A stretch of DNA of 32,000 nt, from assembly GCA_964593045.1 (NCBI GenBank), contig CAZQJQ010000004.1, positions 18,619 to 50,618 on the forward strand. Direction: 5' to 3'. The notes beneath the pieces were generated by a model. The model was not told where the DNA came from. It worked only from the letters and a program-made list of their open reading frames with translations, and did not search any database. This stretch comes from an uncultured Clostridiaceae bacterium. GTDB taxonomy: Bacteria > Bacillota > Clostridia > TANB77 > CAG-465. Every line of letters begins with the position of its first letter. Positions within the stretch are counted from its first letter, which is position 1. Below, in pieces: positions 5,301 through 32,000 of the stretch. Position numbers and translations under genes: made by a program.

Positions 5301-5446
5301 TTAAAAGCTCCACGTATATACGCAGAGCCTACAATCATCTTTTAATCATCACTCAAAACGCATAAGTTTTGTCGGTATTAGCACCTTGTTTTACACAGGT
5401 TGCTGTGGAGTCAAAAAGCCGATTCTCTCGTCCACTCTTGATAACA
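5301..5446 (-). promoter_or_regulatory. SAM-I (S-box) riboswitch leader of metK with terminator hairpin
   Basis: The minus strand reads TTATCAAGAGTGGACGAGAGAATCGGC...CTCCACAGCAACC...AAGGTGCTAATACCGAC. This matches the conserved S-box core (UUAUCAAGAG, GCAACC, GGUGCUAA). It is followed by the GGCTCTGCGTATATACGTGGAGC hairpin and TTTT. Confidence 0.85.
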
Positions 5447-5464
5447 TATATATTAACTAGTTAT

Positions 5465-12374: not shown

Positions 12375-12460
12375 AAAGACATCAAACACATAGAGTTTAC
12401 CGTTTATTGCTGCTTCCTTCCGGACCTGACAAGGTTCACAGCTCTCTATTGTTTGATGAT
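12375..12460 (-). ncRNA. ffs: signal recognition particle RNA, short (4.5S-like) form
   Basis: The minus strand reads AUCAUCAAACAAUAGAGAGCUGUGAACCUUGUCAGGUCCGGAAGGAAGCAGCAAUAAACGGUAAACUCUAUGUGUUUGAUGUCUUUU. It contains the universally conserved GUCAGGUCCGGAAGGAAGCAGC domain IV. The 5' and 3' arms pair (CAUCAAACA/UGUUUGAUG and AUAGAG/CUCUAU). The position upstream of dnaX is the classical one. Confidence 0.85.
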
Positions 12461-12520: not shown

Positions 12521-13213
12521 TTATTCTACTATGAAATTATATGAAGATATACTTTGTCTTTCCACACTTATTCCTTTACTTATAATAGTATCTGAAGGTA
12601 AAGTAACATCAATTTTACATTTATTTATTTTACCTAAAGAGTCAATAATATTCAAATCAAAGGAAATTTCAAACTTAACTTCACTTATTTTTATATTCAT
12701 AATATTTAAAATGGTTCCGTCATATGTAACACTATTTACTCCTTCTGCTATTTTACTTTCAGTAACAAAATTTTTGTTATTTATATTTAATTCTATATAA
12801 TATTGTGAATCTTTTTCCTGTTTTTCAATAGGTATTTTTTCTTGTAAATTAGATAAATCATAACTTGTCTCTTTTGAAGCTTGAGAAAGTGTAAGTTCCC
12901 CCTTTTTTTCTGGCATAGTTACAGACACATTATCAATATATATTTCTTTTGCTTCTGAGCCTTCTGTTTTTGCAACAAGTATAGCAAATGTGTTATTTTG
13001 TGATAGATCAAATGCCATATCTGATAGATTTCCTTCTTGTTCAACTTCTTTTTCTTCAACGCCAACTGTAGATTTAATAACAAAATCGTTTATTCTAAAA
13101 TTACCTTGATTTAATTTTCCTGTTGTATCAAGTATGTAATTATACACTAACACTATTAATGCAACCACAATAAATGCACCTAGAATAAATAAAAATCTAT
13201 TGTTTTTTTTCAT
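12521..13213 (-). CDS. hypothetical membrane-anchored protein, 230 aa
   Basis: A single N-terminal TM (FLFILGAFIVVALIVLVYNYI) is followed by a beta-rich, Asn/Ser/Glu-rich ectodomain. GAGGTGG SD. Confidence 0.6.
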   Translation of the reverse strand: MKKNNRFLFILGAFIVVALIVLVYNYILDTTGKLNQGNFRINDFVIKSTVGVEEKEVEQEGNLSDMAFDLSQNNTFAILVAKTEGSEAKEIYIDNVSVTMPEKKGELTLSQASKETSYDLSNLQEKIPIEKQEKDSQYYIELNINNKNFVTESKIAEGVNSVTYDGTILNIMNIKISEVKFEISFDLNIIDSLGKINKCKIDVTLPSDTIISKGISVERQSISSYNFIVE

Positions 13214-13495: not shown

Positions 13496-15433
13496 CTATT
13501 TTCCAAACAATTCATCAAATTTTTTCTCTAACTCTTTTTGTAAATCAAATTCATCGTTAGGAGTATTCTCAATGACTTGTGCTGGACCTGATGAGGATTC
13601 TTCACTTTCGCTATTTGATTTATTTGCTAAATACTCTTTTGCTCTTTTCATTCTTTGTTCTAAGTATCCCATAACATCCATTGTCCTTATTTCTACTTCT
13701 GCTGGTTTTGGCATCTCAGATATATTATGTATCTCAGTAAGTTTTACTACATCTTTCATTGGATGATATTTATAGTACCAAGCTTTTTTTGCTTTAATTG
13801 GTCTTAATCCTCTTACAAGTAATACTTCTTCATTATTATTCATTCTTTTTAATTCATCTACTGTCATTAAATCTCTTGCTTGTCTTTGCTCACTATATGA
13901 TACTCCTTGCTTTTGTTTATCTTCTTTATCTTTTGATACAGATTTAGACTGGAATTTTATAGTTTTTTGTCCTAAACTTTTAGAAATATACTCGCATGTT
14001 TTATTTGATTGACTTCCAAGGAAAAGCTGTGTATCACAGTTACCAATTATATTTTCATATGTATCTTTATATAGTCCTTCCAATTGGTCTATACTTTGTA
14101 CAACTATTGATATACTTATTCCTAAACTTCTTGTTGTACTAAGTATTTTATTAAAATCAGGTATTTGACCTATATTTGCAAATTCATCAAGAAGTAAATA
14201 TACTTGATTGTTAAGAGTTCCACCATTTCTATTTGCTTGTGAATATAATATTTGTAACAACTGACTAAAAAATATTGTAAGTATATAATTATATGTTCCA
14301 TGTTCTGCTGGAGTTATAACAAAAAGAGCTGTTTTTTCATCACTTAATTCTTCAAAATCAATATCGTTTGTTGTAGTTATATTCATCATACTTGGAGTAT
14401 CAAAATGAGTTAGTTTTGATACTAAAGATATTGCTATACTTTGTTTTGTCTGATCAGCACCAAGCCTTATTCCTTCATATTCTTTTCTTCCTGGATGATC
14501 TGGTTTTAACTCTTCTACCAATAATTTAGTAAATACAGATTCATCCGCACCGCCAGCTCTTACTATATTTAAACAACTAGAAAGATTTTGTTCTTCATCT
14601 GGCAACATAGATATTACGTAGTATATACAAGCTTTAAGTAACATAGTAGCTGTATTATCCCAAAACGGATCACTAGACTTTCCTCCATCTTCTCCTCCTG
14701 ATCCAGATACAATAGTATGTGCTATTATATCTACATCTTTATGATCTCTTATATGTGCAAGCGGATTATATCTATCACTATACTCTGGATTTACTAAGTT
14801 CAATGTCTTTACTTTATATCCATTTGACTTCAAAAATCCCGAAGTTTCTCTATACAATTCACCTTTTGGATCTGTAATTACATACGAACCTAGAAGTTGT
14901 AATATATTAGGTTTAATATAGCATGCAGATTTACCTGTACCAGAACCACCTATTACTAGTATATTTTTATTTATTTCAACTTTTTTTAAATCAGTACCAA
15001 GATAATGATTTTTACTAAGTATAAAGCCATTTTTTCTGTTTAAAATTTCTCTTCCTGTTGATGACTTAACAAACTCTTCTCCATTTTTTGCCCAATCACT
15101 TGAACCATTTTCAATTCCATCGTATTCATGTTTACTTCCATTTTTAACATACCAATAAGCAACAAGTCCTATAAATATTATAAGGGTATAAAATGAAGCA
15201 GATAAAAACTTTGAAAATAAACCCTCAACTGTTATAATTTTATATATTACATCAAATGGATTTATAAGTGTAGACATATATTTAGAAGAAAATGCACTTA
15301 TTTTATCTATTATATTAAGTGAAGTATCTAACTGCGAACTTACAACTACTCCTGTACCTACTATTAAAATATCAACTATTAAATAAAATATTAAAAAAGG
15401 TACTATTTTACTTTTTAACCTTTGTATATCCAT
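13496..15433 (-). CDS. type IV secretion coupling protein (VirD4/TraG family T4CP)
   Basis: Two N-terminal TM helices, GSSDWA, Walker A VIGGSGTGKSACYIKPNILQ, VITDPKGE, SDPFWDNTA, Walker B LLLDEFANIGQIPDF, and TTRSLGISISIVVQSIDQL..GNCDTQLFLG. This is collinear with conjugative T4CPs of Firmicute ICEs. The C-terminal tail is acidic. Confidence 0.92.
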   Translation of the reverse strand: MDIQRLKSKIVPFLIFYLIVDILIVGTGVVVSSQLDTSLNIIDKISAFSSKYMSTLINPFDVIYKIITVEGLFSKFLSASFYTLIIFIGLVAYWYVKNGSKHEYDGIENGSSDWAKNGEEFVKSSTGREILNRKNGFILSKNHYLGTDLKKVEINKNILVIGGSGTGKSACYIKPNILQLLGSYVITDPKGELYRETSGFLKSNGYKVKTLNLVNPEYSDRYNPLAHIRDHKDVDIIAHTIVSGSGGEDGGKSSDPFWDNTATMLLKACIYYVISMLPDEEQNLSSCLNIVRAGGADESVFTKLLVEELKPDHPGRKEYEGIRLGADQTKQSIAISLVSKLTHFDTPSMMNITTTNDIDFEELSDEKTALFVITPAEHGTYNYILTIFFSQLLQILYSQANRNGGTLNNQVYLLLDEFANIGQIPDFNKILSTTRSLGISISIVVQSIDQLEGLYKDTYENIIGNCDTQLFLGSQSNKTCEYISKSLGQKTIKFQSKSVSKDKEDKQKQGVSYSEQRQARDLMTVDELKRMNNNEEVLLVRGLRPIKAKKAWYYKYHPMKDVVKLTEIHNISEMPKPAEVEIRTMDVMGYLEQRMKRAKEYLANKSNSESEESSSGPAQVIENTPNDEFDLQKELEKKFDELFGK

Positions 15434-15456: not shown

Positions 15457-15735
15457 TTACCATCTAAGCAATTCGTCTTCTGGCATTTTTTCTTCTTTTT
15501 GTTTTTCTTTCTTTTCTTGCTCCATTTTTAGCTTTTCTTCTTCTTTTTGTTTTTCTATTTCTTTTATTTTATCAACGCCCAAATCAGTAACTTTTATGCC
15601 TTGTTTTTCTAAATCCTCTATTTCTTTTTTCTTTTTCCTTGCAACTTCTTTACTATCTTTTATTACAATTTTTCCAGGTGTATACTCAAAAGATGCTGCT
15701 CTTACATTTACTTCATCCCAACTTATATCTTTCAT
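15457..15735 (-). CDS. small Lys/Glu-rich coiled-coil protein, 92 aa, unknown
   Basis: AAGGAGAAAGG SD. Sits 23 nt upstream of the T4CP start. The C-terminal half is a charged heptad-like low-complexity region. Confidence 0.6.
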   Translation of the reverse strand: MKDISWDEVNVRAASFEYTPGKIVIKDSKEVARKKKKEIEDLEKQGIKVTDLGVDKIKEIEKQKEEEKLKMEQEKKEKQKEEKMPEDELLRW

Positions 15736-15788: not shown

Positions 15789-16310
15789 TTAATTTTCACT
15801 ATTATTTTTATCTAATTTCAATTCTAAAACAATATATGGCCTACTAGGAAGAATCTTACATTTTCCTTTTACCGTATGTGTAATATCATCCATATATAAT
15901 GTAGGCTTCACTTCTTCTCCTGTCTGTGTATCTATTATTGAAAAATGCCTCTTTAAATTAGGAGTATATTCAATTTCTTTATGTTCTACCCCTTCTTGAT
16001 TAAATATTGTACCATAACTTAAAGGAACATTCCTATCAACCGGTGTAAATCCTTTTTCTGTAAGTTCACCTGTGCTAATAATAGCCTTGTTATTAGTAAG
16101 TGTAAGAAGAAGTATTAATTGTTTATCCGAATCAGCAATAACATTAAATGTTTTTTTAATTTTTCCTTCTTCTTCTATTTCTAAATGATCCAACTTTTGA
16201 AGTGATAATCCTGAACTTTGCTCCATACTAGCTTCTACCATAAATGCTAAAGTACTCATTCCAGGTAAATCTACAATTTCAAATTTGTTCATTTGTATTA
16301 ATGGTTCCAT
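15789..16310 (-). CDS. hypothetical cytoplasmic protein, about 173 aa; first gene of the T4CP operon
   Basis: No TM segment or signal peptide and no recognisable motif. GTGAGG SD favours the third ATG, at 16310; the ORF track starts at 16316. Confidence 0.65.
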   Translation of the reverse strand: MEPLIQMNKFEIVDLPGMSTLAFMVEASMEQSSGLSLQKLDHLEIEEEGKIKKTFNVIADSDKQLILLLTLTNNKAIISTGELTEKGFTPVDRNVPLSYGTIFNQEGVEHKEIEYTPNLKRHFSIIDTQTGEEVKPTLYMDDITHTVKGKCKILPSRPYIVLELKLDKNNSEN

Positions 16311-16410
16311 ATACATACCTCACTTTTTTGATCATATATTATCTTTCAAAATAATTATACTATATATTTATTTTATTATCAACGAATTTGTTAATTTTTA
16401 TGTATTTTCT

Positions 16411-16459: not shown

Positions 16460-18304
16460 TTAATTTTGTATTTGTTCACCATTTGTTGTTTCTATATTTT
16501 GTTCTTGATTAGTTGTAGTGTTATTTACAACTGGTTGTTGAGTTTGTTCTTGTTTTTTTGTGCCAACTTTAACGATTGCATTTTCAGGTTTATATACATC
16601 TTTAGATAATTTTGCACTAGACACCACATTACCATTTAAACTTTTTGTTATATATGCCTCTGATGCATATCCATTAACCCCTTGAGAAACAACTACTTGT
16701 TCTCCTTCATTCATTGTATTATCATATATGTATTGAGTTGAATATGGAATTGTATATAGATAATTACTTGTTAAACTTATATCATATTCCACATCTTCTT
16801 TTTTTCCGTATATACTTATATTTAAACTTCCGGCTGCACTATATGAAGTGACTATTTTAACAGGATATTTTCTTGTGTTTTTAAATCTAAGATCCAAAGT
16901 ACCTGTATATATTGTGGCATCGAGGCTTGGCTTTATATATCCAACTGGTAATCCATGAGCATGCCTTTCTACTATTTCCATATTAGCCATTAAAGCAACA
17001 TAATATAACGTAGAAGAAGTTTGACATATTCCTCCACCTATTTCATCAACTACTGTACCTGCTTTAAATGTAGCAGCTGGCAAATATCCTTTTTCTGTTG
17101 TAGTATCTCCAATTACTGTTTGATATGAGAAAGTTTCACCTGGTTCAATCACTACTCCATTTAAATATTTTAAAGCAATCTCTAAATTTTTAGAACGATT
17201 CGTATTAGATGATGGAAAATATGTTGTATATCCTGCTAATTTATCATTATATAACGTATAATTTATATCAGCTTCTTTTATTTTAGGCTCAGTTATATCT
17301 AAAGGGAATTCAAAGGATTCAGATTCTTTTTTAGTTTGTAATTCTTCATTTAGTTTATCTACATCAAAATCAATGCCTACCACTTCTCTTACAAAAGTAA
17401 CTGGGTCCGTCGATTTATCTATATATGCATCTTTTGCTTCCTTGTATATTTCATCATGAATTTTTTCTGCATCTAAAGCGATTGGTTTTTTTGATATAAC
17501 TTCTATATCATATACAGTATGTTTATTTTCTGACATTTTATCTAATATACTTTTTTTGGCTTTATCATAATCTATTGTATTTCCGCTTTTTCCCATTTTT
17601 ATATTAAGTACATTTTTAGTATAGTCAACTGTATATAAATCATCTTCATATCTGTTTTCTAAGCTTAAGTCTATATTTTTAAGCACGTTATCTAGTTTTG
17701 TATCATCATATTTATATAATTTTGTTACATCATATCTACCTATTATCAATGCTTTTAATATATTATAATTATTAATAAAAATATTGGAATCCCTGCCAAA
17801 AAGCATTGCATTATTTACTGTTTTTTCAACATCTAACTCATATTCTATTTCATCTGGTTCAACCTCATATATCGCTTTACCTTCTTGCTTTATCTCAACT
17901 TTAGAATCAGATACAGCATTAGTTACATTTTTTTGAATTTGTTGAATAGCTTCACTTTTAGTCATTCCAGACAAATCAATATCTCCAACATATGCATTTG
18001 TATATATTGTATCATTTAATTTATTTAAACATGCAAATACAAGAATAGGTAAAATTACAATAAGAAAAATAACTAAGAATATAACAAGGATCTTCTTTTT
18101 TGATTTTTTTTTATAAATTACTGATATATTGTTTTTCTCTTCTGATTTTTCATCCTTTTTTCTTTCATTTGTGTTACTACCATTAATTAAAATTACATCT
18201 TCTTGTGCAGGTTCATCTGTGTTTCTAGTAGCATTATGTATTTTTTCTATATTATCTATATCTTCTTCTTTTTGATTATCATTTAAATTATTATCTTGAT
18301 CCAC
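16460..18304 (-). CDS. VanW-family protein with C-terminal G5-like domain
   Basis: Charged N-terminus, a single TM (ILVIFLVIFLIVILPILVFACL), and the VanW core (GGGICQTSSTLYYVALMANMEIVERHAHGLPVGYIKPSLDATI). The C-terminal G5-like segment is (GEQVVVSQGVNGYASEAYITKSLNG). GTG start preceded by AGGGGGGA. Confidence 0.88.
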   Translation of the reverse strand: MDQDNNLNDNQKEEDIDNIEKIHNATRNTDEPAQEDVILINGSNTNERKKDEKSEEKNNISVIYKKKSKKKILVIFLVIFLIVILPILVFACLNKLNDTIYTNAYVGDIDLSGMTKSEAIQQIQKNVTNAVSDSKVEIKQEGKAIYEVEPDEIEYELDVEKTVNNAMLFGRDSNIFINNYNILKALIIGRYDVTKLYKYDDTKLDNVLKNIDLSLENRYEDDLYTVDYTKNVLNIKMGKSGNTIDYDKAKKSILDKMSENKHTVYDIEVISKKPIALDAEKIHDEIYKEAKDAYIDKSTDPVTFVREVVGIDFDVDKLNEELQTKKESESFEFPLDITEPKIKEADINYTLYNDKLAGYTTYFPSSNTNRSKNLEIALKYLNGVVIEPGETFSYQTVIGDTTTEKGYLPAATFKAGTVVDEIGGGICQTSSTLYYVALMANMEIVERHAHGLPVGYIKPSLDATIYTGTLDLRFKNTRKYPVKIVTSYSAAGSLNISIYGKKEDVEYDISLTSNYLYTIPYSTQYIYDNTMNEGEQVVVSQGVNGYASEAYITKSLNGNVVSSAKLSKDVYKPENAIVKVGTKKQEQTQQPVVNNTTTNQEQNIETTNGEQIQN

Positions 18305-22657: not shown

Positions 22658-23593
22658 ATGAAGCAAAAAAACTATTATGAAATTTTAGGCGTAACAAGAC
22701 GTAGCACAAAAGAAGAAATCAAACTTGCATATAGAAAATTAGCAAAAAAATATCATCCAGACACAAATAAAAATAATGAAGAAGCTGAGGCTAAATTTAA
22801 AGATATAAACGAGGCATATGATACTCTTACTAACGAAGATAAAAGAAGAAGATATGATCGATATGCTATTAAGTATAAATATGGTGTAGATGAAAGTGAA
22901 GGAAGTTTACCAAACATAAAATATGAAATAAAATCTGGAGTAAATGTTTTAAACGATATTTTATCTACAATTCTTGGTTTTAAAAAAGATGATGAGGCTC
23001 AAAATTTTGGAGATATAAACAACGCTCCAAAAGAAGAAACCATAAAACAAAAACCAATTAAAGGAAAAGATATTGAAACAAACTTAGAAATTACTTTAGA
23101 GGAAGGATTCTTTGGAACCGAGAAGAAAATATCTATAAAAAACCATAAGACATCTTCTAAAACAATTAGTGTAAACGTACCTGTTGGAATTAAAGATGGT
23201 GATAAAATACGTTTAGCTGCTCTTGGTATACCTGGTAAAAATGGTGGTAAAAACGGTGATTTAATTATACATGTAAAAATAAAAGAAAACGAAAACTTTA
23301 AATTAAAAGGCCTTGACCTTATAAAAGAAATAAATATATCACCTGCACTTGCAGTTGTTGGTGGAAAATATAGACTTGAATATATAGATGAAAAAATAAC
23401 TATAGATTTACCAAAGCACATGCAAAACGGTCAAGTTATAACTTATGAAAAAATGGGATACATTTCAGAAAATAAAACTAGAGGAAATCTAAAATTAGTT
23501 ATACATATATCAATGCCAGATAGCATAACAGAAAGAGAAGAAAGTTTATATTCTCAATTATTAAAGTTAGAGAACAAGAAAAACGGTAAATAG
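22658..23593 (+). CDS. J-domain co-chaperone, CbpA-like (DnaJ class II, no zinc-finger domain)
   Basis: J-domain YYEILGV...YRKLAKKYHPD. No CxxCxGxG repeats. DnaJ C-terminal beta domains are present (GKDIETNLEITLEE, GDLIIHVKI). GGAGGG SD. Confidence 0.88.
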   Translation: MKQKNYYEILGVTRRSTKEEIKLAYRKLAKKYHPDTNKNNEEAEAKFKDINEAYDTLTNEDKRRRYDRYAIKYKYGVDESEGSLPNIKYEIKSGVNVLNDILSTILGFKKDDEAQNFGDINNAPKEETIKQKPIKGKDIETNLEITLEEGFFGTEKKISIKNHKTSSKTISVNVPVGIKDGDKIRLAALGIPGKNGGKNGDLIIHVKIKENENFKLKGLDLIKEINISPALAVVGGKYRLEYIDEKITIDLPKHMQNGQVITYEKMGYISENKTRGNLKLVIHISMPDSITEREESLYSQLLKLENKKNGK

Positions 23594-23616
23594 GAAGATA
23601 CTTAATTGTATCTTCC
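23593..23616. terminator. hairpin terminator between convergent genes
   Basis: GGAAGATAC-ttaatt-GTATCTTCC followed by TCATTTT. Confidence 0.6.
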
Positions 23617-23621
23617 TCATT

Positions 23622-24653
23622 TTATTTAGTTATCTTCTTTTTCTTAAGTCTTATATCTTCTCCAATAAATTTACATATTACAAAATTACCTATTATTCTA
23701 GACATAACCCTTTCATCATATTCTTTATATAATTCATTTAAAGTTAGATTCGTAGATATAAGTATTTTTTTGTTATTAAGAAGTCTTGTATTTATAACAT
23801 TAAATAATTCAGTAAATTTATTGTTTGTCATTGTTTCTGTCCCCAAATCATCTATTATGAGTAAATCTACCTGAAATATCTTATTATATTGGCTCTTTGA
23901 AATTTCATCTTTGTTATATGAAAATTTATATTCCATTATCATATCCATAAGATTTGGTGCTGTTTGGTAAACAACAGTCTGCCCAGAATTTATAACTTCA
24001 TTTGCTATTGAATTTGCAAGAAATGTTTTTCCGAGTCCTGTATTTCCCACAAAAAGCAAATTTTTTTGTTCTTTGTTTGCTATATTTTTACAAAACTTTT
24101 CAGCTATTCTCTTTATACATTCTATATTTTCTAAAGGAGATTTATCAGAACCATATTTTTCTTTATCCGCCTTTGAGGAATAATACCCTATATCAAATGT
24201 ACTAAAGTTTTCTTCCTCCAATTTATTTATATTAGATTGTCTATATGCTTGATTAATCATGCTTTGTGTAAAACACTTACAGTTTTTCAACACACCATTT
24301 TCACTTATTACACCTGTATCGTTACATATTTTACAATCAAAATTAGGTTCTAAATCTTTTTTATTATATCCTTCTTTTTCAAGTAATTTTTCATATTTTA
24401 AGTCAATTTCTTTCATTTTAAACTCTAATTTTTCTATCTCTACCTGTTTTGTAAGATCATCTGCATTTAACATAAGTTTAGTTGTAGCTATTGCAATGTT
24501 TTCTTTTTCATCTTCAAGTTCTCTTAGTTTAGGAATTTTTGAATATATTTCTTCTGTTTTTTTATTAGCATCATCTATTTTCCTTTGCCTTTTTAAATCA
24601 TATTCTCTTACTAATTTTCTATACATATCTATATTCAAATTTCTCACCGCCAC
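23622..24653 (-). CDS. DnaI/DnaC-type helicase loader ATPase with N-terminal Cys cluster
   Basis: Walker A LLFVGNTGLGKTFLANSIA and Walker B DLLIIDDLGTE. The upstream CKICNDTGV...CKC resembles the zinc-binding N-domain of DnaI. The annotated GTG start has no convincing SD, so the start is uncertain. Confidence 0.85.
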   Translation of the reverse strand: MAVRNLNIDMYRKLVREYDLKRQRKIDDANKKTEEIYSKIPKLRELEDEKENIAIATTKLMLNADDLTKQVEIEKLEFKMKEIDLKYEKLLEKEGYNKKDLEPNFDCKICNDTGVISENGVLKNCKCFTQSMINQAYRQSNINKLEEENFSTFDIGYYSSKADKEKYGSDKSPLENIECIKRIAEKFCKNIANKEQKNLLFVGNTGLGKTFLANSIANEVINSGQTVVYQTAPNLMDMIMEYKFSYNKDEISKSQYNKIFQVDLLIIDDLGTETMTNNKFTELFNVINTRLLNNKKILISTNLTLNELYKEYDERVMSRIIGNFVICKFIGEDIRLKKKKITK

Positions 24654-24671: not shown

Positions 24672-25637
24672 TTACACATTATCATAATATGATTCTAAAT
24701 CATCATAATTTCTTTGTTCATAATTTTGATACTTAGTAACAATTTTATCTACACCATTTGACTTTGACTTAGATGTCCTATTTGTAGTTACTTTACTTTC
24801 TTTTTGTATATCTTCTACGGTCTTTATATTTTTTGTATACCAGTTATTTAAAATACCATTTATATAATTAATACTTGGATTTGTTTTTGATACAGTTCTT
24901 TTTAATGCTTCTTCAATTATATCAAAATCATATTTATATTCGTTAACCCATTTATCTATATATTGTTCCTCATACTTTGTAAAGTTTCTATTGAGTCTTA
25001 ATGCTTTTAATATTTTTTGTTTAATTTTTTGCGTTTTTTCTGCTTTTTCTAAATACTCTTCTAATTGTTCGAATGTTTTTACTCCACCATTATACCATGA
25101 CTCTGCCACTACATATACATACTTTCTAGAAAGAGATTTTTTTTCTTTACAATAATGAAATAACGCTATCATTACTTCTTCAGAAAATTTATATTTTTCA
25201 AACATATCTCCAATATCTGTATACCAGCCAAGAGACATAAGTCCTTGGAAAAAACTTTCGTTTATAGCAGTAGCAGCAGCAATTCTTTTTTGTTCAGTTT
25301 CTGTTTGTTGCTTTGTCTTTTTAGTTTCTATTTTAGGTGTATATGATTTACATATCTCTTCACTCTTCATATTTTTTATATAATAACCTTCTGTATTTTT
25401 TTCAATTAGGCCTTCTATTTGCATTCTATCTAGGCTAAAAGAAATATCTTGCTCTGTAACAGAAAATTTTTTAGCAATCTCTTTTACATCAAAATTCATT
25501 CCTTTTTTTGATACAAGCAACATGTATATATATAACTTAACATCTATACCCTCTAAAACAGGTAAAAGATTAAGTATAAACAAATCGGGAACTAAAGTGT
25601 CACTAAGTTCTATATCCTCTTTTTGTACTATTTTCAT
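24672..25637 (-). CDS. DnaD/DnaB(Bsu)-type replication initiation protein (two DnaD-like domains)
   Basis: N-terminal winged-helix-like region and two DnaD-like C-terminal blocks (YVYVVAESWYNGGVKT and YINGILNNWYTKNIKT). AGGAGAG precedes the ATG at 25637. Confidence 0.82.
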   Translation of the reverse strand: MKIVQKEDIELSDTLVPDLFILNLLPVLEGIDVKLYIYMLLVSKKGMNFDVKEIAKKFSVTEQDISFSLDRMQIEGLIEKNTEGYYIKNMKSEEICKSYTPKIETKKTKQQTETEQKRIAAATAINESFFQGLMSLGWYTDIGDMFEKYKFSEEVMIALFHYCKEKKSLSRKYVYVVAESWYNGGVKTFEQLEEYLEKAEKTQKIKQKILKALRLNRNFTKYEEQYIDKWVNEYKYDFDIIEEALKRTVSKTNPSINYINGILNNWYTKNIKTVEDIQKESKVTTNRTSKSKSNGVDKIVTKYQNYEQRNYDDLESYYDNV

Positions 25638-25801
25638 AAACATACTCTCCTAAAACAAATTTAACTTGTTTTAGTAAATTATATCATTTGTTTTTAGTTT
25701 TTACAATACTTACTGAGTTAAAAACTTATACATTAGCAAAATATATAAACAAGTATAACATATATTATTTAAAAAGTTCTGACTAAATTTACTTTAATGT
25801 T

Positions 25802-26173
25802 TTACTGCACTATATTATTATATTTTATTAATTTGCTTTTTTCATATTCATCCATACAATTTTTAAAATTTGCATCTGTATAGTACACATGTTTCTTTTT
25901 AGAAAAAATATACTTTAGTATTATAGCAACAGACTCTATAGCATTCTCATTATTTAAATTAATTAGTATTATTCCAGATATAGGGATAATAACAAAAAGG
26001 AAACAATATATTTTATATATCATATCAATCTGTATCTTACTAAGAATAGTTACAATAGTTGCTGCGATACCTAGTATTATACTTAATGTTTTATAATCAA
26101 TTATTCCAAGCCATTTGTTATTCCTTTTATAGTTTAAATATATTGGTTGTAGGTTATATCTATTCTTATTCAT
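25802..26173 (-). CDS. two-TM conjugation-type membrane protein, PrgI/TcpE (VirB3-like) layout
   Basis: 123 aa. The basic N-terminus is followed by two hydrophobic helices (LSIILGIAATIVTIL and IYCFLFVIIPISGIILI). It occupies the position after a VirB6-like gene, as in Firmicute T4SS loci. The call rests on layout and position only. Confidence 0.5.
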   Translation of the reverse strand: MNKNRYNLQPIYLNYKRNNKWLGIIDYKTLSIILGIAATIVTILSKIQIDMIYKIYCFLFVIIPISGIILINLNNENAIESVAIILKYIFSKKKHVYYTDANFKNCMDEYEKSKLIKYNNIVQ

Positions 26174-26188
26174 AAAATCTCTCCACTT

Positions 26189-27022
26189 CTAATTTTTGCC
26201 GACCTTGATATCATCTGTTATTTTTACAAGAAATTCTTTAGTAAAGTTATTCACTTTATATAACAAATATATACTTCCTACTAATATAATTTTAAACATA
26301 ATTGTATCTATTTCCTTATACATCAATGGAATTATTAATATAAATTTTGTTATAACTTGAACAAACATATTAACAACAAATAATTTAACCCAGCTTCTAA
26401 ATATTCCTACACTTATACTACTACTCATACAACTTATTGCAATTGGAGATACAATAACAAGAAAAATAACTGTTACATATCTTATAGCAAACGATATAAG
26501 TATATTTAACATACCAAAAGACACTACTCCTTTTATAAGTCCATTTAAACTTATCAAATCATTTTTCATAAAATCATCTATTGATAGAATTACTTCTTTT
26601 AAGTTTTCAAACGTAACATCATTTTTTACAATATCTTTTCCGAGCAAATTTACAGCTTCTGTAAATGTATAGAAAAGTTCTAATATCTGTTCACAAATAT
26701 AATAGCTATTATTTATTAATAAAACTGCAACAATAATTTTAAGCATAAATAAATATGTATTATCCATTGGTTTGCCATTATACATAGATATAAGTTGCAA
26801 AAAAATATAATATATAAAGTAAAAAAGAATCAAGCTATTTGCTATTATAACTACTCCGTTTATTTTATCCTCAAAAAAAATATTTTTAAGAGGTTCTTCT
26901 GTTAATATATTAGGGCCTATACAAACTATATTATCAAGAACTTCATATACTTGTCCTTCTACCGATTTAAAAAGTTTTTCAGATATAACATTTAAATTAT
27001 TTAATATATCATTTGCTTGCAT
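26189..27022 (-). CDS. polytopic membrane protein, VirB6/TrbL-like
   Basis: 277 aa with about six TM segments. The central segment AIRYVTVIFLVIVSPIAISC resembles the conserved R...P-I-A block of TrbL/VirB6 proteins. Its start lies 1 nt after the upstream stop. Confidence 0.55.
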   Translation of the reverse strand: MQANDILNNLNVISEKLFKSVEGQVYEVLDNIVCIGPNILTEEPLKNIFFEDKINGVVIIANSLILFYFIYYIFLQLISMYNGKPMDNTYLFMLKIIVAVLLINNSYYICEQILELFYTFTEAVNLLGKDIVKNDVTFENLKEVILSIDDFMKNDLISLNGLIKGVVSFGMLNILISFAIRYVTVIFLVIVSPIAISCMSSSISVGIFRSWVKLFVVNMFVQVITKFILIIPLMYKEIDTIMFKIILVGSIYLLYKVNNFTKEFLVKITDDIKVGKN

Positions 27023-27023
27023 A

Positions 27024-27359
27024 TTAAGTAAGTGCCTCTACGAATTTTATAATAAGATCAATAGACATAATTATTGCATATCCTACTATTGCATTAACAA
27101 TAACTTTCTTTCCCATTATCATTTTTTCTTCATTTCCAAAGCTTAACTTTCTCATTAATACCCCTGTTGCTATTGCAAGTCCTGCAATAGGTGTGGAAAG
27201 TTTTACTAAATATCCTTGTATCTTCTTAAAAGCAGTATTTAATTTAGTAACCAGCGTAGGATCTGTTGCCGCAAAAATACTATTAAACATTACTATACAA
27301 ACAAATAATATAGCAAAAACTATAAACATCTTATTTATAATAATTTTACTTTTTTTCAT
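27024..27359 (-). CDS. small secreted two-helix protein, VirB2/TrbC pilin-like (or Maff2-like)
   Basis: 111 aa. The signal peptide ends in SIFA/ATDP. It is followed by two hydrophobic helices (STPIAGLAIATGVLM and VIVNAIVGYAIIMSIDLII). GGGAGGA SD. Overlaps the upstream gene by 14 nt. Confidence 0.5.
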   Translation of the reverse strand: MKKSKIIINKMFIVFAILFVCIVMFNSIFAATDPTLVTKLNTAFKKIQGYLVKLSTPIAGLAIATGVLMRKLSFGNEEKMIMGKKVIVNAIVGYAIIMSIDLIIKFVEALT

Positions 27360-29193
27360 ATTCTTCCTCCCATCTTTTTAATTTTATTTTGTCATAAAAA
27401 TCAATATTTTCTCCGTCTGATATAATTGCTGCAGCCTCAAAAGTCTTGAGTTCTTGAGTAAAGTATTCTTCGTTATACTTATACTCAATATTCTCAGCTA
27501 GAGAATATGATTCAGAAATTCCTGATTTAAAACTGCTAAATTTTTTAAAAAACAAATTATATTTACTATCTTGACCTCCTTCCGATATACTAAGTGTAGA
27601 CTTTTTCTTTATTGTTTTACCTATTTGTTTTATAATTTCATTTACAGTATATATATCATCATTTCTAAACCAAATTTTATTTACTAAATTTTGAATTATG
27701 ACCTTAGCAGCATTTTCATTTTTTATATTATTAATTAAAGATGAATAACTTTGCATACTCACAATATTTATACATTTGAATTCTCTTGACAATGATAAAA
27801 AATGTGCATCTTCTTCATTTACAAATTCTTGATATTCATCACATATAAAAAATATAGGCTTTTCAAAATTTTTTCTAAGTAAAACTTGCTCTTGAAAATC
27901 TAATTTTAGATATGTTGCTATTACTTTTGCAAGTTTAAAATCTTCTGCCATATTTATTGATAATACATAAATTTTATTACTCATAAAATCTATTTTATCA
28001 TTTGTAGAATCAAACTTTTTACTTATGTTATAGCTACTAGTAAACAAGCTAGTTATTCTAGTTATCTCTGATTTTATAATTCCAACTGTTCTTGTATCTA
28101 AATTTAGATATTCATTTTGTAAATTATTAATAGCAAGCTGTACCTCAAAAATAACATCATCGTTATAATTATTACTTAAAAGTAAAGACTTAACTTCCTT
28201 TATTTTACTTTTTAAATAATTATTATCACACACTAATTTATGTATCTCTAAAAAATTAATATTTTTGTTATATATCTTTATTAAAGATATAAAATCTTTA
28301 ATAAATTGTTCTGCTTTATCAAGCCAAAAGCTATCAGAAAGATTGTTATCTGATATTAAAGTAAGTACTTTTCTCATTTTTTGTGCAAGTTTAGTAGTTG
28401 AAATATTTGAATTATTAATAGGGCAATAACAAAAATTGCTTTTAATAGATATTTCTACTACCAATTCTTCTTTAGAGTATTTTCTAGCAATTTTTCTTAT
28501 AGTTTCAATATAATTTCCTTTTATATCTAGAATCAATCCTGATACATTTTTAGATATAAGCTCATCTACTATATTTGAAATTGCACTACTTGTCTTACCA
28601 CTTCCTATACTACCTGTTATAAGGAGATTTTGAAATAATCCATTTAGCGTTAATCCAATATTCATATTATCTATTTTTCCAAAATTAATAAAATATTTAT
28701 TATTATCACTACTTAAATTTTCTTTTGCTTGATTCTTTTTATATAAATTAATATAAATGCTATTTGTAATATAAAATATAAATATTAGAGATAATAAATA
28801 ATATAGAAATCTAAATAAAGGGATATAATCATTAAAAGAAGAAATAATATCTATTTTTTTACTAAAAATAGTTACTACAAAAAAATTAGAATTTAAATAT
28901 TTATATACAATTGAATATTTTAAAGAAAAAATTGTGGCTCCTGTAAGCAAGATGGTAAAAACTTGCTTACAACCGTATAATGATTTAAAAGACATAAATG
29001 AACTAATAATCTCAGAAAAAAAATTGTTATTTTGCCTATCTAAGTTGCAAGTTATATTTGTTAGACCTTTTTGTGAAATATATTTTTCAAGCTTGCTACC
29101 TTGTTTTGAATATAACCACTTTTTGTCCAAAAGAGAATATAACTTAATAATGAAAAAAATTAAATAGAATAAAAATTCAATGAAGATAACCAT
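27346..29193 (-). CDS. membrane-anchored P-loop ATPase of the T4CP (VirD4/TraG/TraD) type, highly divergent
   Basis: N-terminal hydrophobic helices, Walker A LITGSIGSGKTSS, ILDIKGNY (compare DPKGE of T4CPs), Walker B FFICDEYQEF, and the block SREFKCINIVSMQSYSSL..NLVNKIWFRNDD. This is collinear with the canonical T4CP at 13496-15433. GAAGGTGG lies 8 nt upstream of the ATG at 29193; the ORF track starts at 29205. Confidence 0.7.
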   Translation of the reverse strand: MVIFIEFLFYLIFFIIKLYSLLDKKWLYSKQGSKLEKYISQKGLTNITCNLDRQNNNFFSEIISSFMSFKSLYGCKQVFTILLTGATIFSLKYSIVYKYLNSNFFVVTIFSKKIDIISSFNDYIPLFRFLYYLLSLIFIFYITNSIYINLYKKNQAKENLSSDNNKYFINFGKIDNMNIGLTLNGLFQNLLITGSIGSGKTSSAISNIVDELISKNVSGLILDIKGNYIETIRKIARKYSKEELVVEISIKSNFCYCPINNSNISTTKLAQKMRKVLTLISDNNLSDSFWLDKAEQFIKDFISLIKIYNKNINFLEIHKLVCDNNYLKSKIKEVKSLLLSNNYNDDVIFEVQLAINNLQNEYLNLDTRTVGIIKSEITRITSLFTSSYNISKKFDSTNDKIDFMSNKIYVLSINMAEDFKLAKVIATYLKLDFQEQVLLRKNFEKPIFFICDEYQEFVNEEDAHFLSLSREFKCINIVSMQSYSSLINNIKNENAAKVIIQNLVNKIWFRNDDIYTVNEIIKQIGKTIKKKSTLSISEGGQDSKYNLFFKKFSSFKSGISESYSLAENIEYKYNEEYFTQELKTFEAAAIISDGENIDFYDKIKLKRWEEEYEKK

Positions 29194-29385
29194 TATACGT
29201 ACCACCTTCTAAATTTTAACATTTTGAATTAAATTTTTCAATAATATCAACATTTTTCGATGATATTCGAACTATCTAGATAATTTTTTTTGATTTTCGA
29301 CACAAAATAAAGTATAAATATTATAATAATAGTTATAAAAAGTTAGCCATTAATTGTTTTATAACTGGAACTCAGACTGCATAAT

Positions 29386-29507: not shown

Positions 29508-31481
29508 TTAATATCTATATTTTTCACTTTCTTCTGCAACGCCCAAATTTGTATAATACTCATCTTCATCAATTGAATAAGTAATTCCGTTGCATCTATT
29601 TATTCTTCTTTTTAAATATTCAGCTAAAGGCTTGTCTTCACAATAAATATAACAACCTTTCTGACCTCTTGTCATTAAAGTTCTATATGTATTTTTTATA
29701 ATTTCATCAGCTAATTTTAAAGCTTTTTCCGGATTTTCTTTGTACATTTTTTTAATTCCCTTTAAAGAATTATCTGTACCTGCTCTTTTAGTAAAATCAG
29801 TTACTATCTTTCCATTTTCATATCTCAAATCTTTGCCAATTATTACTCCTGCATAATCGAATTCTAATCCTTGAGATGTATGTATACATCCAACTTCATT
29901 TACTGATTCCGGATCAATTGCCCATGTTGAACTACTTCCCAAATTCCAACTCATTTCAAAGTTATATTCTGGTATAACAATATCATAAATATTGGTATCA
30001 TTTTTACCCTCTTTAATCCAATTCCAGCAATATCCTGCAACTATTCTTGCCTTATTGTTTATTTTGTTTAACTTCAATATTTTATTTTTTACATCGTTTG
30101 GATTATCCATAATTCGAATATCATAATCAATATCAAATCCATTACTATTGGCTGTTTGCCTTATTTCTAGCACATCATCTAACCATGCTAAATATCCATC
30201 TGAACCATTACACCTAAATTGAGACTCAAGTTCTAATATTTTTCTTTCTTCTCCTACTACTCCATATTCATCTAAATATTTTTCGATTTCAGCAACTGAA
30301 CCGATATCATAAATATCTATTCTTTGTGTTTCATCAATAAAGAAAACAGAAAACTTTGCAGTATTTATAATTTCTTTTATTTGATTTTCTCCTTGATTTT
30401 TATACATTCCTGATTTTGCATTTAATCTATGTGCCTCATCTGCCAAAATTACTGCCACATCATCTTTTCTGGATTCAGTATATATTCCTGAACCTTTAAA
30501 CATATTATCTATTTTTGATATTTTTTGAGTTCCTTTTAATTTAGATTTAAATACAGCTCTAGGTGCCGCATTTTTAGTAACATAGTGACATACCATCTCA
30601 TATGGCTTGTTTGTTAAATCTGATAATAAATTAATTGCTAAAACTGTTTTTCCTGTACCTGGTCCACCTTTAACTATCAAACATCTTTTTTTGCTGTCTT
30701 CATTAGATTTCTTTGCCATCGCCATAGCTGTTTCATATACTACTTTTTGATTATCTAATAATATAAATTCTTTATTTTGTTTTACCATTCCTGCAATACA
30801 ATCTTGTAATGATTTAGAAGGTTTTATTTTTCCATTTTCTATTAAATATAATGTTTCTTTATCATCACCTTCTGTAACATACTTTTTAATAAATTTTCTT
30901 AATTTTAGAGCATCTCCACTAATGAATATAGGAGCTTTTTTAATATAATCTTTATAATTGTCTGATAGTATAGTTTTAGGTTCGACATTTTCATAATTGT
31001 GTAAATATGCGCAAGGTAATAATTTCACATTGTCTCTTTGCACATTTTCATTAAAATCTTCGATATATGCAGCATAAGACCATGCTTGATAAGATGGATG
31101 AGCAACCTCTCTCATTGCACCACCTGTAAAAGTTCTAACAATACCATCTTGATCTTTAACAATTTCAGCCTCTGTCCATTGTTTTAACTCAACTATAATT
31201 GCAATATTTCTTCCTTGTTTATCTCTTCCAGTTATAATAAAATCTATTCTTTTTGAAGTATATGGAACTTTAAATTCTATTGCTATTCCACTATTATTTG
31301 GAATACTAACATCGTTTAATACATTATTCATATACATCATAGAATTCTTCCAAGCTTCTCTTTCCCTTGGATTAACGTTTTGTCCAACCCTTAATCTATA
31401 TAATTGTTCTATTCTAGTAGCTATTTGATTATTTATTACATCATTGATAAATAGCTCTTTTGTTGCTTCATATACTATCAT
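29508..31481 (-). CDS. PD-(D/E)xK nuclease fused to an SF1-type helicase/ATPase (DUF2075-type architecture)
   Basis: The N-terminal RIDFIITG...IAIIVELKQW gives a D...ExK nuclease motif. Walker A is VKGGPGTGKTVLA, Walker B is VILADEAHRL, and the C-terminal motif is IHTSQGLEFDYAGVIIG. GGGGGG precedes the ATG at 31481; the ORF track extends to a TTG at 31529. Confidence 0.85.
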   Translation of the reverse strand: MIVYEATKELFINDVINNQIATRIEQLYRLRVGQNVNPREREAWKNSMMYMNNVLNDVSIPNNSGIAIEFKVPYTSKRIDFIITGRDKQGRNIAIIVELKQWTEAEIVKDQDGIVRTFTGGAMREVAHPSYQAWSYAAYIEDFNENVQRDNVKLLPCAYLHNYENVEPKTILSDNYKDYIKKAPIFISGDALKLRKFIKKYVTEGDDKETLYLIENGKIKPSKSLQDCIAGMVKQNKEFILLDNQKVVYETAMAMAKKSNEDSKKRCLIVKGGPGTGKTVLAINLLSDLTNKPYEMVCHYVTKNAAPRAVFKSKLKGTQKISKIDNMFKGSGIYTESRKDDVAVILADEAHRLNAKSGMYKNQGENQIKEIINTAKFSVFFIDETQRIDIYDIGSVAEIEKYLDEYGVVGEERKILELESQFRCNGSDGYLAWLDDVLEIRQTANSNGFDIDYDIRIMDNPNDVKNKILKLNKINNKARIVAGYCWNWIKEGKNDTNIYDIVIPEYNFEMSWNLGSSSTWAIDPESVNEVGCIHTSQGLEFDYAGVIIGKDLRYENGKIVTDFTKRAGTDNSLKGIKKMYKENPEKALKLADEIIKNTYRTLMTRGQKGCYIYCEDKPLAEYLKRRINRCNGITYSIDEDEYYTNLGVAEESEKYRY

Positions 31482-31685
31482 AATAATTTGCCCCCCATTA
31501 ATTATTTTCTTTATAAATCCTCCCAACAAATAAATATTTGAAAATTTTTTCTCTTTTTTCGTAAAAATCTTTTCTCATCTCTATTATTAATTCTTTAAAT
31601 AATTTTTCATGCATTTCATTATATTTTTTTACATTCTTATTTTTTATTAAATGCTTTATTTTATTTTAGTTTAAACTCTCTATCA

Positions 31686-32000
31686 TTAAAATTTATTATA
31701 TTTTGTACTTACTCCTTTAGCTTTTTCTATAGGATATTTCTTTGCTGATATATCCATTTTATCTAAAATAATTTGTTTAGGATCTACTCCTATTTGATGA
31801 GACAAAAGAATACAATAATTCATAACATCTGCAATTTCAAATTTCAATTCGTCTTTATTATAATTGTTATTCCATTGAAAACATTCTAATAGCTCTCCTG
31901 CTTCAATGGCAATTGACTTTGCCAAATTTTCTGGTGTATTAAATTGTAACCAATCCCTATCTTCTGCAAATTTCACTATTTTTTCTTCTAATTCTTTCAT
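31686..32000 (-). CDS. MazG-like nucleotide pyrophosphohydrolase (DCTPP1/all-alpha NTP-PPase type)
   Basis: FAEDRDWLQFNTPENLAKSIAIEAGELLECFQW and EIADVMNYC carry the paired acidic MazG motifs. The ATG falls exactly on the last codon of the window, so the start cannot be confirmed. Confidence 0.8.
   Translation of the reverse strand: MKELEEKIVKFAEDRDWLQFNTPENLAKSIAIEAGELLECFQWNNNYNKDELKFEIADVMNYCILLSHQIGVDPKQIILDKMDISAKKYPIEKAKGVSTKYNKF

Follow-up and report, generated by a model that had tools for sequence, protein, structure and literature searches.

Organization of the four-gene unit

The window analysed here, a 32,000 nt stretch of contig CAZQJQ010000004.1 from an uncultured Clostridiaceae bacterium, carries at positions 25802-29205 four intact minus-strand open reading frames (ORFs) whose products resemble components of type IV secretion systems (T4SSs). 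We regard it as fairly probable that they constitute a domesticated and functional T4SS-derived module with its coupling-protein-type ATPase, T4CP1, acting as its own motor. In the order of transcription, from T4CP1 through the pilin and the VirB6-like gene to the VirB3-like gene, they are as follows.

27346-29205, minus strand: T4CP1 (protein 1), ATPase, 619 aa
27024-27359, minus strand: VirB2/TrbC-type pilin (protein 2), 111 aa
26189-27022, minus strand: VirB6/TrbL-like polytopic protein (protein 3, p277), 277 aa
25802-26173, minus strand: VirB3/PrgI-like two-helix protein (protein 4, p123), 123 aa

Reading 5′ to 3′, the junctions in the window are a 14 nt overlap, a 1 nt gap and a 15 nt gap, and the corresponding median gaps across relatives are −4, +1 and +3 nt, so that the genes are closely packed into a single unit, probably with translational coupling. 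An earlier note on this DNA, made by inspection of the sequence, had described this layout together with the overlap, the gaps and the ATPase motifs, and the ORF map agrees with it throughout; hydropathy profiles likewise agree with the topologies that it proposed for all four proteins.

The same note drew attention to the A+T richness of the four genes relative to gyrA and metK. Their bulk G+C fraction is indeed lower (0.21-0.25, compared with 0.29-0.33 in gyrA and metK), but this does not hold up as a sign of foreignness. The G+C fraction at third codon positions (GC3) is 0.14-0.19, compared with 0.11-0.17 in housekeeping genes, synonymous codon usage is unremarkable, and the G+C deficit is confined to codon positions 1 and 2, the products being membrane proteins rich in Ile, Asn, Lys and Phe. 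Since GC3 is native, the A+T richness stems from amino acid composition and not from foreign DNA.

Relationships of the four proteins

The family guesses of the earlier note proved right in kind, although with different degrees of assurance for the four products. T4CP1 contains the motifs LITGSIGSGKTSS, ILDIKGNY and FFICDEYQEF, and its hydropathy profile has three N-terminal hydrophobic segments within residues 1-152. It matches the Pfam families TrwB_AAD_bind (E-value 1.8e-12) and TraG-D_C (7.7e-6), with no match to PF02534, and a sequence search of the PDB with a T4CP1 profile returned nothing usable. The Walker A (GSIGSGKT) and Walker B (DEYQ) motifs are invariant among 68 orthologs, and an AlphaFold2 model built from these 68 sequences has a pLDDT of 84. 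When this model was compared with the PDB using Foldseek, matches were found to Helicobacter pylori Cagbeta/VirD4 (5.7e-13), TrwB (1e-10) and DotL (2e-8), with a probability of 1.00 for both TrwB and Cagbeta; HerA (about 5e-9) comes next among the fold classes, and chains of VirB4 appear only at about 1.5e-6. Between the T4CP folds and VirB4 there is thus a difference of some seven orders of magnitude in E-value, in favour of the former, and the idea that T4CP1 is a VirB4 protein in disguise was therefore ruled out.

The predicted structure includes an all-alpha insertion at about residues 270-400 and an additional beta-rich stretch of about 70 aa at the C terminus (residues ~546-608; window positions 27346-27600), which is partly of low pLDDT, lies outside the TraG-D_C match and carries the conserved motifs LKTFEA and SDG. 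This region may bind a substrate or a partner. It and the presence of three transmembrane segments instead of two are the departures of T4CP1 from the usual coupling proteins; the transmembrane anchor, RecA-like nucleotide-binding domain, alpha insertion and TrwB/VirD4 fold that characterize the family are all present. From its Pfam matches and the fold of the predicted model, T4CP1 is firmly assigned as a type IV coupling protein (T4CP).

The 111 aa product of the second gene matches Pfam T4SS_pilin (PF18895; 9.7e-7, 29.2 bits with a cutoff of 26.6), and falls just short of the cutoff for TrbC (4e-5). T4SS_pilin is matched by 38 of 40 orthologs and TrbC by 24 of the 40. The aligned sequences share a signal peptide ending in ..FAA, followed by two hydrophobic helices joined by a conserved loop, RKFSFG(D/N)EEK, and these sequence features firmly predict a VirB2/TrbC-type pilin.

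The third product, p277, has at least four or five hydrophobic segments by hydropathy. The protein itself finds no match in Pfam and a profile search of the PDB yielded nothing usable, but its ortholog P0151 matches TrbL_4 at 4e-8 (33.4 bits, cutoff 27) and four of 40 orthologs match TrbL (best E-value 5.7e-7). An AlphaFold2 model (pLDDT 75, pTM 0.72) has the TrwI/VirB6 chains of R388 as its top fold matches in the PDB, at a probability of 0.95, an E-value of 0.06 and a TM-score of 0.34. Together, the ortholog matches and the model fold identify p277 as VirB6/TrbL-like with moderate assurance.

The smallest protein, p123, is the most difficult to place. It has two hydrophobic segments, and its size and position in the operon also fit VirB3/PrgI/TcpE proteins. 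Among 40 aligned orthologs there is an N-terminal motif, N..R.NK.LGI.DYK, and an invariant proline in the second helix. Nine of the 40 match PrgI (best 0.013) and four match VirB3 (best 0.0024), all below the curated cutoffs, and 16 have sub-threshold matches (best 1.3e-4) to the N-terminal ~114 residues of a VirB4 model from mycoplasma integrative conjugative elements (ICEs); any unrelated family recurs in at most three of the 40, and a profile search of the PDB came back empty. An exhaustive phmmer search of 1.84 billion representative proteins recovered 64 clusters of the p123 family, all of 75-147 aa and none fused to an ATPase, from which it appears that the family is lineage-restricted and never joined to an ATPase. 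We consider p123 to be weakly identifiable, from these sequence matches, as VirB3/PrgI-like. At one locus (L051:3070-4278, plus strand) a single 402 aa ORF contains the VirB6-like and VirB3-like sequences in frame, either as a natural fusion or through an error in assembly of the metagenome-assembled genome (MAG).

None of the four proteins has a match in PHROGs. Identity with a Tad/Flp type IVc pilus was considered and rejected; no match to T2SSE, TadB/C or Flp was found in the four proteins, and the ATPase is of the FtsK/HerA/T4CP class.

Distribution, synteny and selection

Relatives were sought in one genome per GTDB species. A relative of T4CP1 is carried by 115 of these genomes, and 80 loci were retrieved and examined, all from MAGs of uncultured Clostridia and mostly from gut or faecal samples; Clostridium sp. 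CAG:465, CAG:452, CAG:921 and CAG:1219 are among the carriers. The carriers probably belong to the GTDB order TANB77, to judge from their low GC, their reduced genomes, the naming of gut MAGs as ‘Clostridium sp. CAG:...’ and a comparable species count; the literature searched gave no confirmation of this for CAG:465, CAG:452, CAG:921 and CAG:1219. As determined by tblastn and ORF mapping, the order T4CP, pilin, VirB6-like, VirB3-like, dnaD, dnaI is invariant in the 80 loci, as is the strand. Gaps in this order correspond to contig ends, to a few fragmented gene calls or to VirB3-like genes too diverged for tblastn, and where the VirB3-like gene escapes detection its slot is held by an intact ORF of about 95 aa. 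The contigs of the relatives are chromosomal, with lengths of up to 771 kb and housekeeping neighbours, and the flank upstream of the unit is variable.

T4CP1 is 35-58 % identical to its relatives and GyrA 57-85 %, a pattern indicating that the module has diverged along with the genomes that carry it. In close genome pairs the ratio of nonsynonymous to synonymous substitutions (dN/dS) is 0.08-0.22 for T4CP1, 0-0.25 for the pilin, 0.02-0.12 for the VirB6-like gene and 0.05-0.35 for the VirB3-like gene; the values are mostly 0.05-0.2, comparable to the 0.015-0.15 of dnaD and dnaI. The four genes are under purifying selection, and synteny, dN/dS and GC3 together establish that the module is selected and chromosomally fixed in at least 115 species of uncultured Clostridia.

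The earlier note placed a dnaD-like gene 158 nt beyond the unit, with a dnaI-like gene after it. This is correct for the window, where the following features lie downstream of the VirB3-like gene; among relatives the junction is looser.

25644-25801: spacer between the four-gene unit and dnaD, 158 nt in the window
24672-25643, minus strand: DnaD/DnaB_2-domain replication initiation protein (Pfam DnaB_2 1.7e-32, TIGR01446 1e-20)
23622-24653, minus strand: DnaC/DnaI-type helicase loader (NCBIfam PRK06835 1.3e-100, 336.7 bits, cutoff 215)
23592-23617: terminator-like hairpin between the converging dnaI-like and dnaJ-like genes, the sole one in the region

The dnaI-like protein also carries IstB_IS21/Bac_DnaA AAA+ domains, and since its PRK06835 match is above the cutoff it appears to be an ordinary helicase loader of clostridial type. 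In 73 of 84 loci dnaD follows the four-gene unit with order and strand kept, most of the others being cut by contig ends, and the median gap between dnaD and dnaI is 16 nt. One genome (L016) has a 648 aa ORF inserted between these two genes. The spacer ahead of dnaD has a median length of 86 nt and a range of 17-1861 nt, is longer than 300 nt in 12 of the 71 genomes, and is a hotspot for insertion. Inserts of 0.8-1.9 kb are present in six loci (L008, L011, L019, L039, L041 and L042), and the spacer inserts encode toxin-antitoxin-like pairs, a GNAT acetyltransferase, small membrane proteins and a 379 aa protein; the larger spacers were inspected for VirB4 remnants and none was found, these unrelated accessory genes being present instead. 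No terminator-like site was found on the minus strand between T4CP1 and the end of dnaI, so that read-through is possible. A promoter-like site lies in the spacer at 25706-25678, but such sites are no commoner in this A+T-rich DNA than in shuffled sequence and no operon boundary can be drawn from them. The region is thus best described as two tight units, of four genes and of two, that are kept adjacent and between which a functional link is possible.

Searches for VirB4 and mobility genes

The earlier note characterized the operon as lacking VirB4, a relaxase and a cell-wall hydrolase. For the neighbourhood this is so: Pfam and NCBIfam searches reveal no relaxase, integrase or VirB4 among the annotated ORFs of the window, the same three are absent from six Pfam-annotated neighbourhoods of relatives, and neither a wall hydrolase (VirB1/CHAP/SLT) nor a VirB8-like scaffold is encoded in the operon or its immediate flanks. 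A scan of 86 loci found no VirB4-sized P-loop ORF within ~8 kb of T4CP1, a result that applies to the neighbourhood and not to the genome; the P-loop ORFs of 350 aa or more at these loci are T4CP1, DnaX and a few singletons only. Continuation of the locus into VirB4 or relaxase genes in relatives, an outcome that the note had allowed for, was thus found neither in the P-loop scan of the 86 loci nor in the six annotated ones, and its description stands as one of the locus.

Comparison by tblastn with 72,556 plasmids shows that the nearest plasmid relatives of T4CP1 are TrwB-type T4CPs of 23-27 % identity that lie beside relaxases or integrases. There is no match to p277 in this collection, and no mobile ancestor of the module was identified among the plasmids searched. 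The locus also does not have the character of an integrative conjugative or mobilizable element, as it occupies a fixed site beside dnaD-dnaI in 80 genomes and has no relaxase or integrase nearby. Measured as a T4SS, it has locally a T4CP, a VirB6/TrbL-like and a VirB2/TrbC-type protein, and is without VirB4 and a hydrolase or VirB8.

A second T4CP locus in the window

A second coupling protein gene, overlooked in the earlier note, is located about 10 kb from the four-gene unit, among the following genes.

16460-18304, minus strand: wall-binding protein with VanW, G5 and PG_binding_4 domains, directly upstream of the T4CP2 locus
15789-16316, minus strand: p175, soluble partner of T4CP2, 175 aa, 52-70 % identical in relatives
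within 15457-15735, minus strand: gene for a small charged peptide of ~50 aa, poorly conserved, between p175 and T4CP2
13496-15433, minus strand: T4CP2, canonical VirD4/TraG-type T4CP (T4SS-DNA_transf 9e-83, TraG-D_C 2e-37) with two N-terminal transmembrane segments
12521-13213, minus strand: p230, N-terminally anchored ectodomain protein, 230 aa, flanking T4CP2

Orthologs of T4CP2 occur on the same MAG contigs as T4CP1 and, at 60-71 % identity, are better conserved than those of T4CP1. The two coupling proteins have the Walker A motif alone in common (BLASTP E-value 0.04), and descent as recent paralogs was ruled out on this ground. In four loci (L085, L086, L089 and L090) p175, which has no match in Pfam, PHROGs or PADLOC, is encoded directly upstream of T4CP2, and in L089 and L090 the small peptide is fused to it. 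The VanW/G5 protein and p230 flank T4CP2 both in the window and in L085, and the former could be a wall-remodelling partner or a coincidental neighbour; the neighbourhood of T4CP2 in L086 and L090 has, at a distance of about 2 kb, a gene for a DUF348-G5-SLT lytic transglycosylase. In L089 (11053-15097) T4CP2 is directly followed downstream by spoIID, an M23 peptidase gene, spoIIID and mreB, and the presence of spoIID and spoIIID there indicates that the lineage carries sporulation genes. No VirB4, relaxase or integrase was found near T4CP2, VirB4-like ORFs being absent within 9-10 kb at the four loci, and a scan of metagenome contigs with T4CP2 as a single protein gave two distant loci only. 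That T4CP2 and p175 belong to the same machine as the four-gene unit, as a substrate receptor, is speculative. The location of T4CP2 nevertheless has a direct bearing on the four-gene unit: with T4SS-type parts dispersed over 10 kb, the local absence of VirB4 cannot be extended to the genome.

Other features of the window

Upstream of the operon (29508-32000, minus strand) are a gene for a Schlafen-group-3/DUF2075 helicase (Pfam 5e-100), with PADLOC matches to PDC-S41 (1.8e-17), AbiO and Nhi, and a MazG-like gene; this defence-like flank is variable and the relatives do not have it beside the module. An ordinary S-adenosylmethionine (SAM) riboswitch (5343-5447, minus strand, 73 bits) lies upstream of metK, and an equally ordinary small signal recognition particle RNA (12375-12460, minus strand, 67 bits) upstream of dnaX. 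In one genus (L001:18508-19251, and also L002 and L003) a gene for a TraX-family, pilin-acetylase-like acyltransferase is located some 5 kb downstream from the module.

Interpretation of the module

The earlier note offered two explanations for the operon, an eroding ICE fragment or a retained minimal translocon with a role other than classical conjugation, and it is the second that the observations support. In the explanation that we favour, the module derives from a T4SS of monoderm type, has been domesticated and is now vertically inherited, non-mobile and not used for self-transfer, in hosts that form a deep, uncultured and low-GC lineage of Clostridia, sampled from the gut and from other anaerobic or host-associated settings. 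By analogy with the T4SSs of Patescibacteria, its function would most likely be lineage-specific housekeeping or interaction with a host or partner. As T4CP1 is the sole ATPase encoded locally, it is proposed as the motor acting on VirB3 and VirB6. Following the architecture of R388 (PMC12857230), p277 would be the membrane channel or platform and would recruit VirB2, and p123 would tether the ATPase to p277, as VirB3 normally does for VirB4; T4CP1 would dock on both of these and serve as the dedicated motor of the module. ATP hydrolysis might then power one of two processes: passage of a macromolecular substrate (protein or DNA) through the single membrane, or removal of pilin from that membrane for assembly of a short VirB2 filament or conduit that crosses the wall.

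A bolder form of this proposal, which we advance only tentatively, is that the module is truly independent of VirB4, a divergent coupling-protein-type ATPase having replaced VirB4 on VirB3 and VirB6 throughout an order-level lineage of uncultured gut Clostridia with small genomes, where it would drive a VirB2 pilin conduit in a Gram-positive envelope. Such a machine, fixed beside the helicase-loader genes, would possibly be required for the lifestyle of its hosts, by analogy with the T4SS of the Saccharibacteria.

A number of considerations weigh against the proposal that the module is functional and driven by T4CP1. To our knowledge, a T4CP acting as sole motor is without precedent. According to PMC4027160 and PMC12857230, the characterized T4SSs all use VirB4, and VirB3 is known solely as a VirB4 partner. 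The VirB6 fold match of the p277 model is weak (TM-score 0.34, E-value 0.06), the VirB3 assignment of p123 is drawn from sub-threshold matches only, and T4SS-type genes are dispersed in this genome. The linkage to dnaD-dnaI may have no functional meaning and simply be synteny kept by descent, as the spacer is interrupted by insertions in 12 of the 71 genomes. The lineage is moreover uncultured, and the module is known from sequences and predicted models alone.

The rival that survives best is that the operon is one island of a complete T4SS whose VirB4, and perhaps VirB8- and VirB1-like parts, are encoded elsewhere in the genome, with T4CP1 and T4CP2 as two substrate receptors and the VirB3-like protein paired with a distant VirB4. 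The rvh system of the Rickettsiales is a T4SS scattered over the chromosome in this manner. T4CP2 and p175 already lie 10 kb from the operon, and the VanW/G5 protein and p230 that flank T4CP2 are candidate VirB1- and VirB8-like analogues; most T4CP genes of Patescibacteria are far from virB4 (PMC12102498), and VirB4 is held in PMC4027160 to be the sole ubiquitous T4SS protein. We nonetheless think this arrangement rather unlikely, in view of the lack of a VirB4-like ORF within ~8 kb of T4CP1 (86 loci) or 9-10 kb of T4CP2 (four loci). In addition, virB3 is usually adjacent or fused to virB4, whereas here it is in a tight operon with a T4CP, and no ATPase fusion is seen in the 64 p123 clusters.

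The adjacency of the two units raises another alternative, namely a membrane device linked to replication or to the chromosome that works with DnaD and DnaI and secretes nothing, for example in membrane tethering of the origin or loading of the replisome, or in chromosome movement during sporulation or division. The invariant adjacency and co-orientation with dnaD-dnaI and the lack of a terminator-like hairpin ahead of the dnaI end are in keeping with such a device, as are the sporulation genes of the lineage and the annotation of DnaB_2 as ‘replication initiation and membrane attachment’; T4CPs are, furthermore, members of the FtsK/HerA group of DNA translocases, with HerA the next-best fold of T4CP1 and a PADLOC HerA match on its Walker A motif. 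However, a Sec-exported VirB2 pilin has no obvious intracellular role, the spacer accommodates inserts of 0.3-1.9 kb (12 of the 71 genomes), which implies that co-transcription is not obligatory, and adjacency could be neutral inheritance in reduced genomes. We judge this alternative improbable.

An anti-phage or conflict system composed of a HerA/FtsK-like ATPase with membrane effectors would find some basis in the weak PADLOC matches that T4CP1 has with mad8 (1.4e-5) and, over the Walker A region alone, with HerA (2.3e-7), and in the Schlafen/DUF2075 helicase and MazG-like gene immediately upstream. It is very improbable, given that the PADLOC matches of T4CP1 are generic to P-loop proteins, the three partner proteins have none, the fold of T4CP1 is that of a T4CP rather than HerA, the upstream defence-like genes are not kept beside the module in relatives, and such systems are typically patchy and mobile while the module is fixed and syntenic.

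Finally, an eroding ICE remnant left by recent loss of VirB4, relaxase and recombinase would account for a gene content that is a subset of a conjugative module and for a bulk G+C below that of the neighbouring housekeeping genes, but it is refuted, beyond a negligible residual chance, by clade-wide synteny (four intact genes in the same order by dnaD-dnaI in 80 species-level genomes, at 35-58 % identity), by purifying selection (dN/dS of ~0.05-0.2), by native GC3 and codon usage, and by relatives that, in the 86 loci scanned for VirB4 and the six annotated ones, do not continue into VirB4 or relaxase genes and whose large spacers are free of VirB4 fragments.

Comparison with known systems

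A search of the literature found no description of this module. What is new about it is a T4SS-derived composition, locally without VirB4 and apparently driven by a T4CP, that is fixed in a Gram-positive lineage. VirB4 is treated as the universal signature of T4SSs, on which classifications and detection tools alike are built; if our reading is true, such tools would miss a conserved VirB2/VirB3/VirB6 set that has a coupling-protein-type ATPase as its motor, the T4SS membrane platform would be able to change its motor, and, in the bolder form of the proposal, this would be the first T4SS-derived machine to run without VirB4. A 2025 review (PMC12857230) lists T4SS variants without VirD4 and none without VirB4, and describes VirB2 as absent from Gram-positive T4SSs except those of Patescibacteria. 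The module would be only the second instance reported of VirB2-type pilins in an envelope of Gram-positive type, and the second of a T4SS-like system that is non-mobile and lineage-fixed in monoderms with reduced genomes. Even with a VirB4 elsewhere in the genome, the ICE-remnant reading is corrected and a clean, testable set of genes is defined.

Among the better-known systems, the conjugative T4SSs of monoderms (MPF_FATA; pCF10 Prg/Pcf, ICEBs1 Con, pCW3 Tcp and CTn2) share with the module a T4CP, a single-membrane architecture, a VirB6-like protein (PrgH/ConG/TcpH) and, if p123 is rightly placed, a VirB3-like protein (PrgI/ConD/TcpE). They differ in always having VirB4 (PrgJ/ConE/TcpF), a wall hydrolase, a VirB8-like protein and a relaxase, in residing on mobile elements and in having, as stated in the 2025 review, no VirB2; the module has VirB2, has locally none of VirB4, hydrolase, VirB8 and relaxase, and is non-mobile. 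Exapted, chromosomal T4SS parts that are not conjugative are also represented by ComB of H. pylori, Ptl of Bordetella, Trw of Bartonella and the gonococcal genetic island (GGI) of Neisseria, which provide precedents for uptake or release of DNA and for pilus-only functions. These all keep VirB4, several are without a T4CP, and they belong to diderms with outer-membrane cores, so that the module is locally their opposite. Integrative mobilizable elements (IMEs) and orphan T4CPs resemble it in having a T4CP gene without VirB4, but IMEs combine this with a relaxase, oriT and integrase, are patchy in distribution and have no VirB2, VirB6 or VirB3; the distant plasmid relatives of T4CP1 resemble IMEs and the module locus does not.

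A Tad/Flp pilus cluster has been reported as exclusively conserved in TANB77, an order whose members are prevalent in the human gut, have been connected with how cancer immunotherapy is responded to, and have surface structures that are already of interest (Kim et al. 2024, PMC11680825); T4SS, VirB and TrbC do not occur in the text of that paper. The Tad/Flp cluster encodes a type IV filament (TadA/CpaF, TadB/C and TadE-like pilins), whereas the module is T4SS-derived and of another superfamily. If the carriers are TANB77, the two would both be clade-wide envelope machines with ‘pilin’ genes, and with the operon the lineage would have two such machines and two surface-exposed ‘pilins’.

The closest analogue is the chromosomal T4SS of Patescibacteria, which is mostly without a relaxase, has VirB2-like pilins and is often near dnaA (PMC12102498; Quinonero-Coronel et al. 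2025); PMC12857230, drawing on Wang et al. 2023, describes the T4SS of Southlakia as essential for epibiotic growth. The T4SSs of Patescibacteria and Saccharibacteria are, like the module, chromosomal, vertically conserved and without a relaxase nearby, in monoderm, uncultured or hard-to-culture bacteria with reduced genomes, and the Patescibacteria systems likewise have VirB2-like pilins and VirB3- and VirB6-like parts. Both are found near replication genes, dnaA in Patescibacteria and dnaD-dnaI and gyrA here. The Patescibacteria T4SS is, however, centred on VirB4, with an array of pilins and a T4CP that is usually distant and dispensable, whereas the unit described here has its T4CP within the operon, no VirB4 within ~8 kb and one pilin gene, in a Clostridia host with sporulation genes. 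As the Patescibacteria T4SS is defined by the VirB4 that is locally absent here, the module is an analogue of that system and not a member of it.

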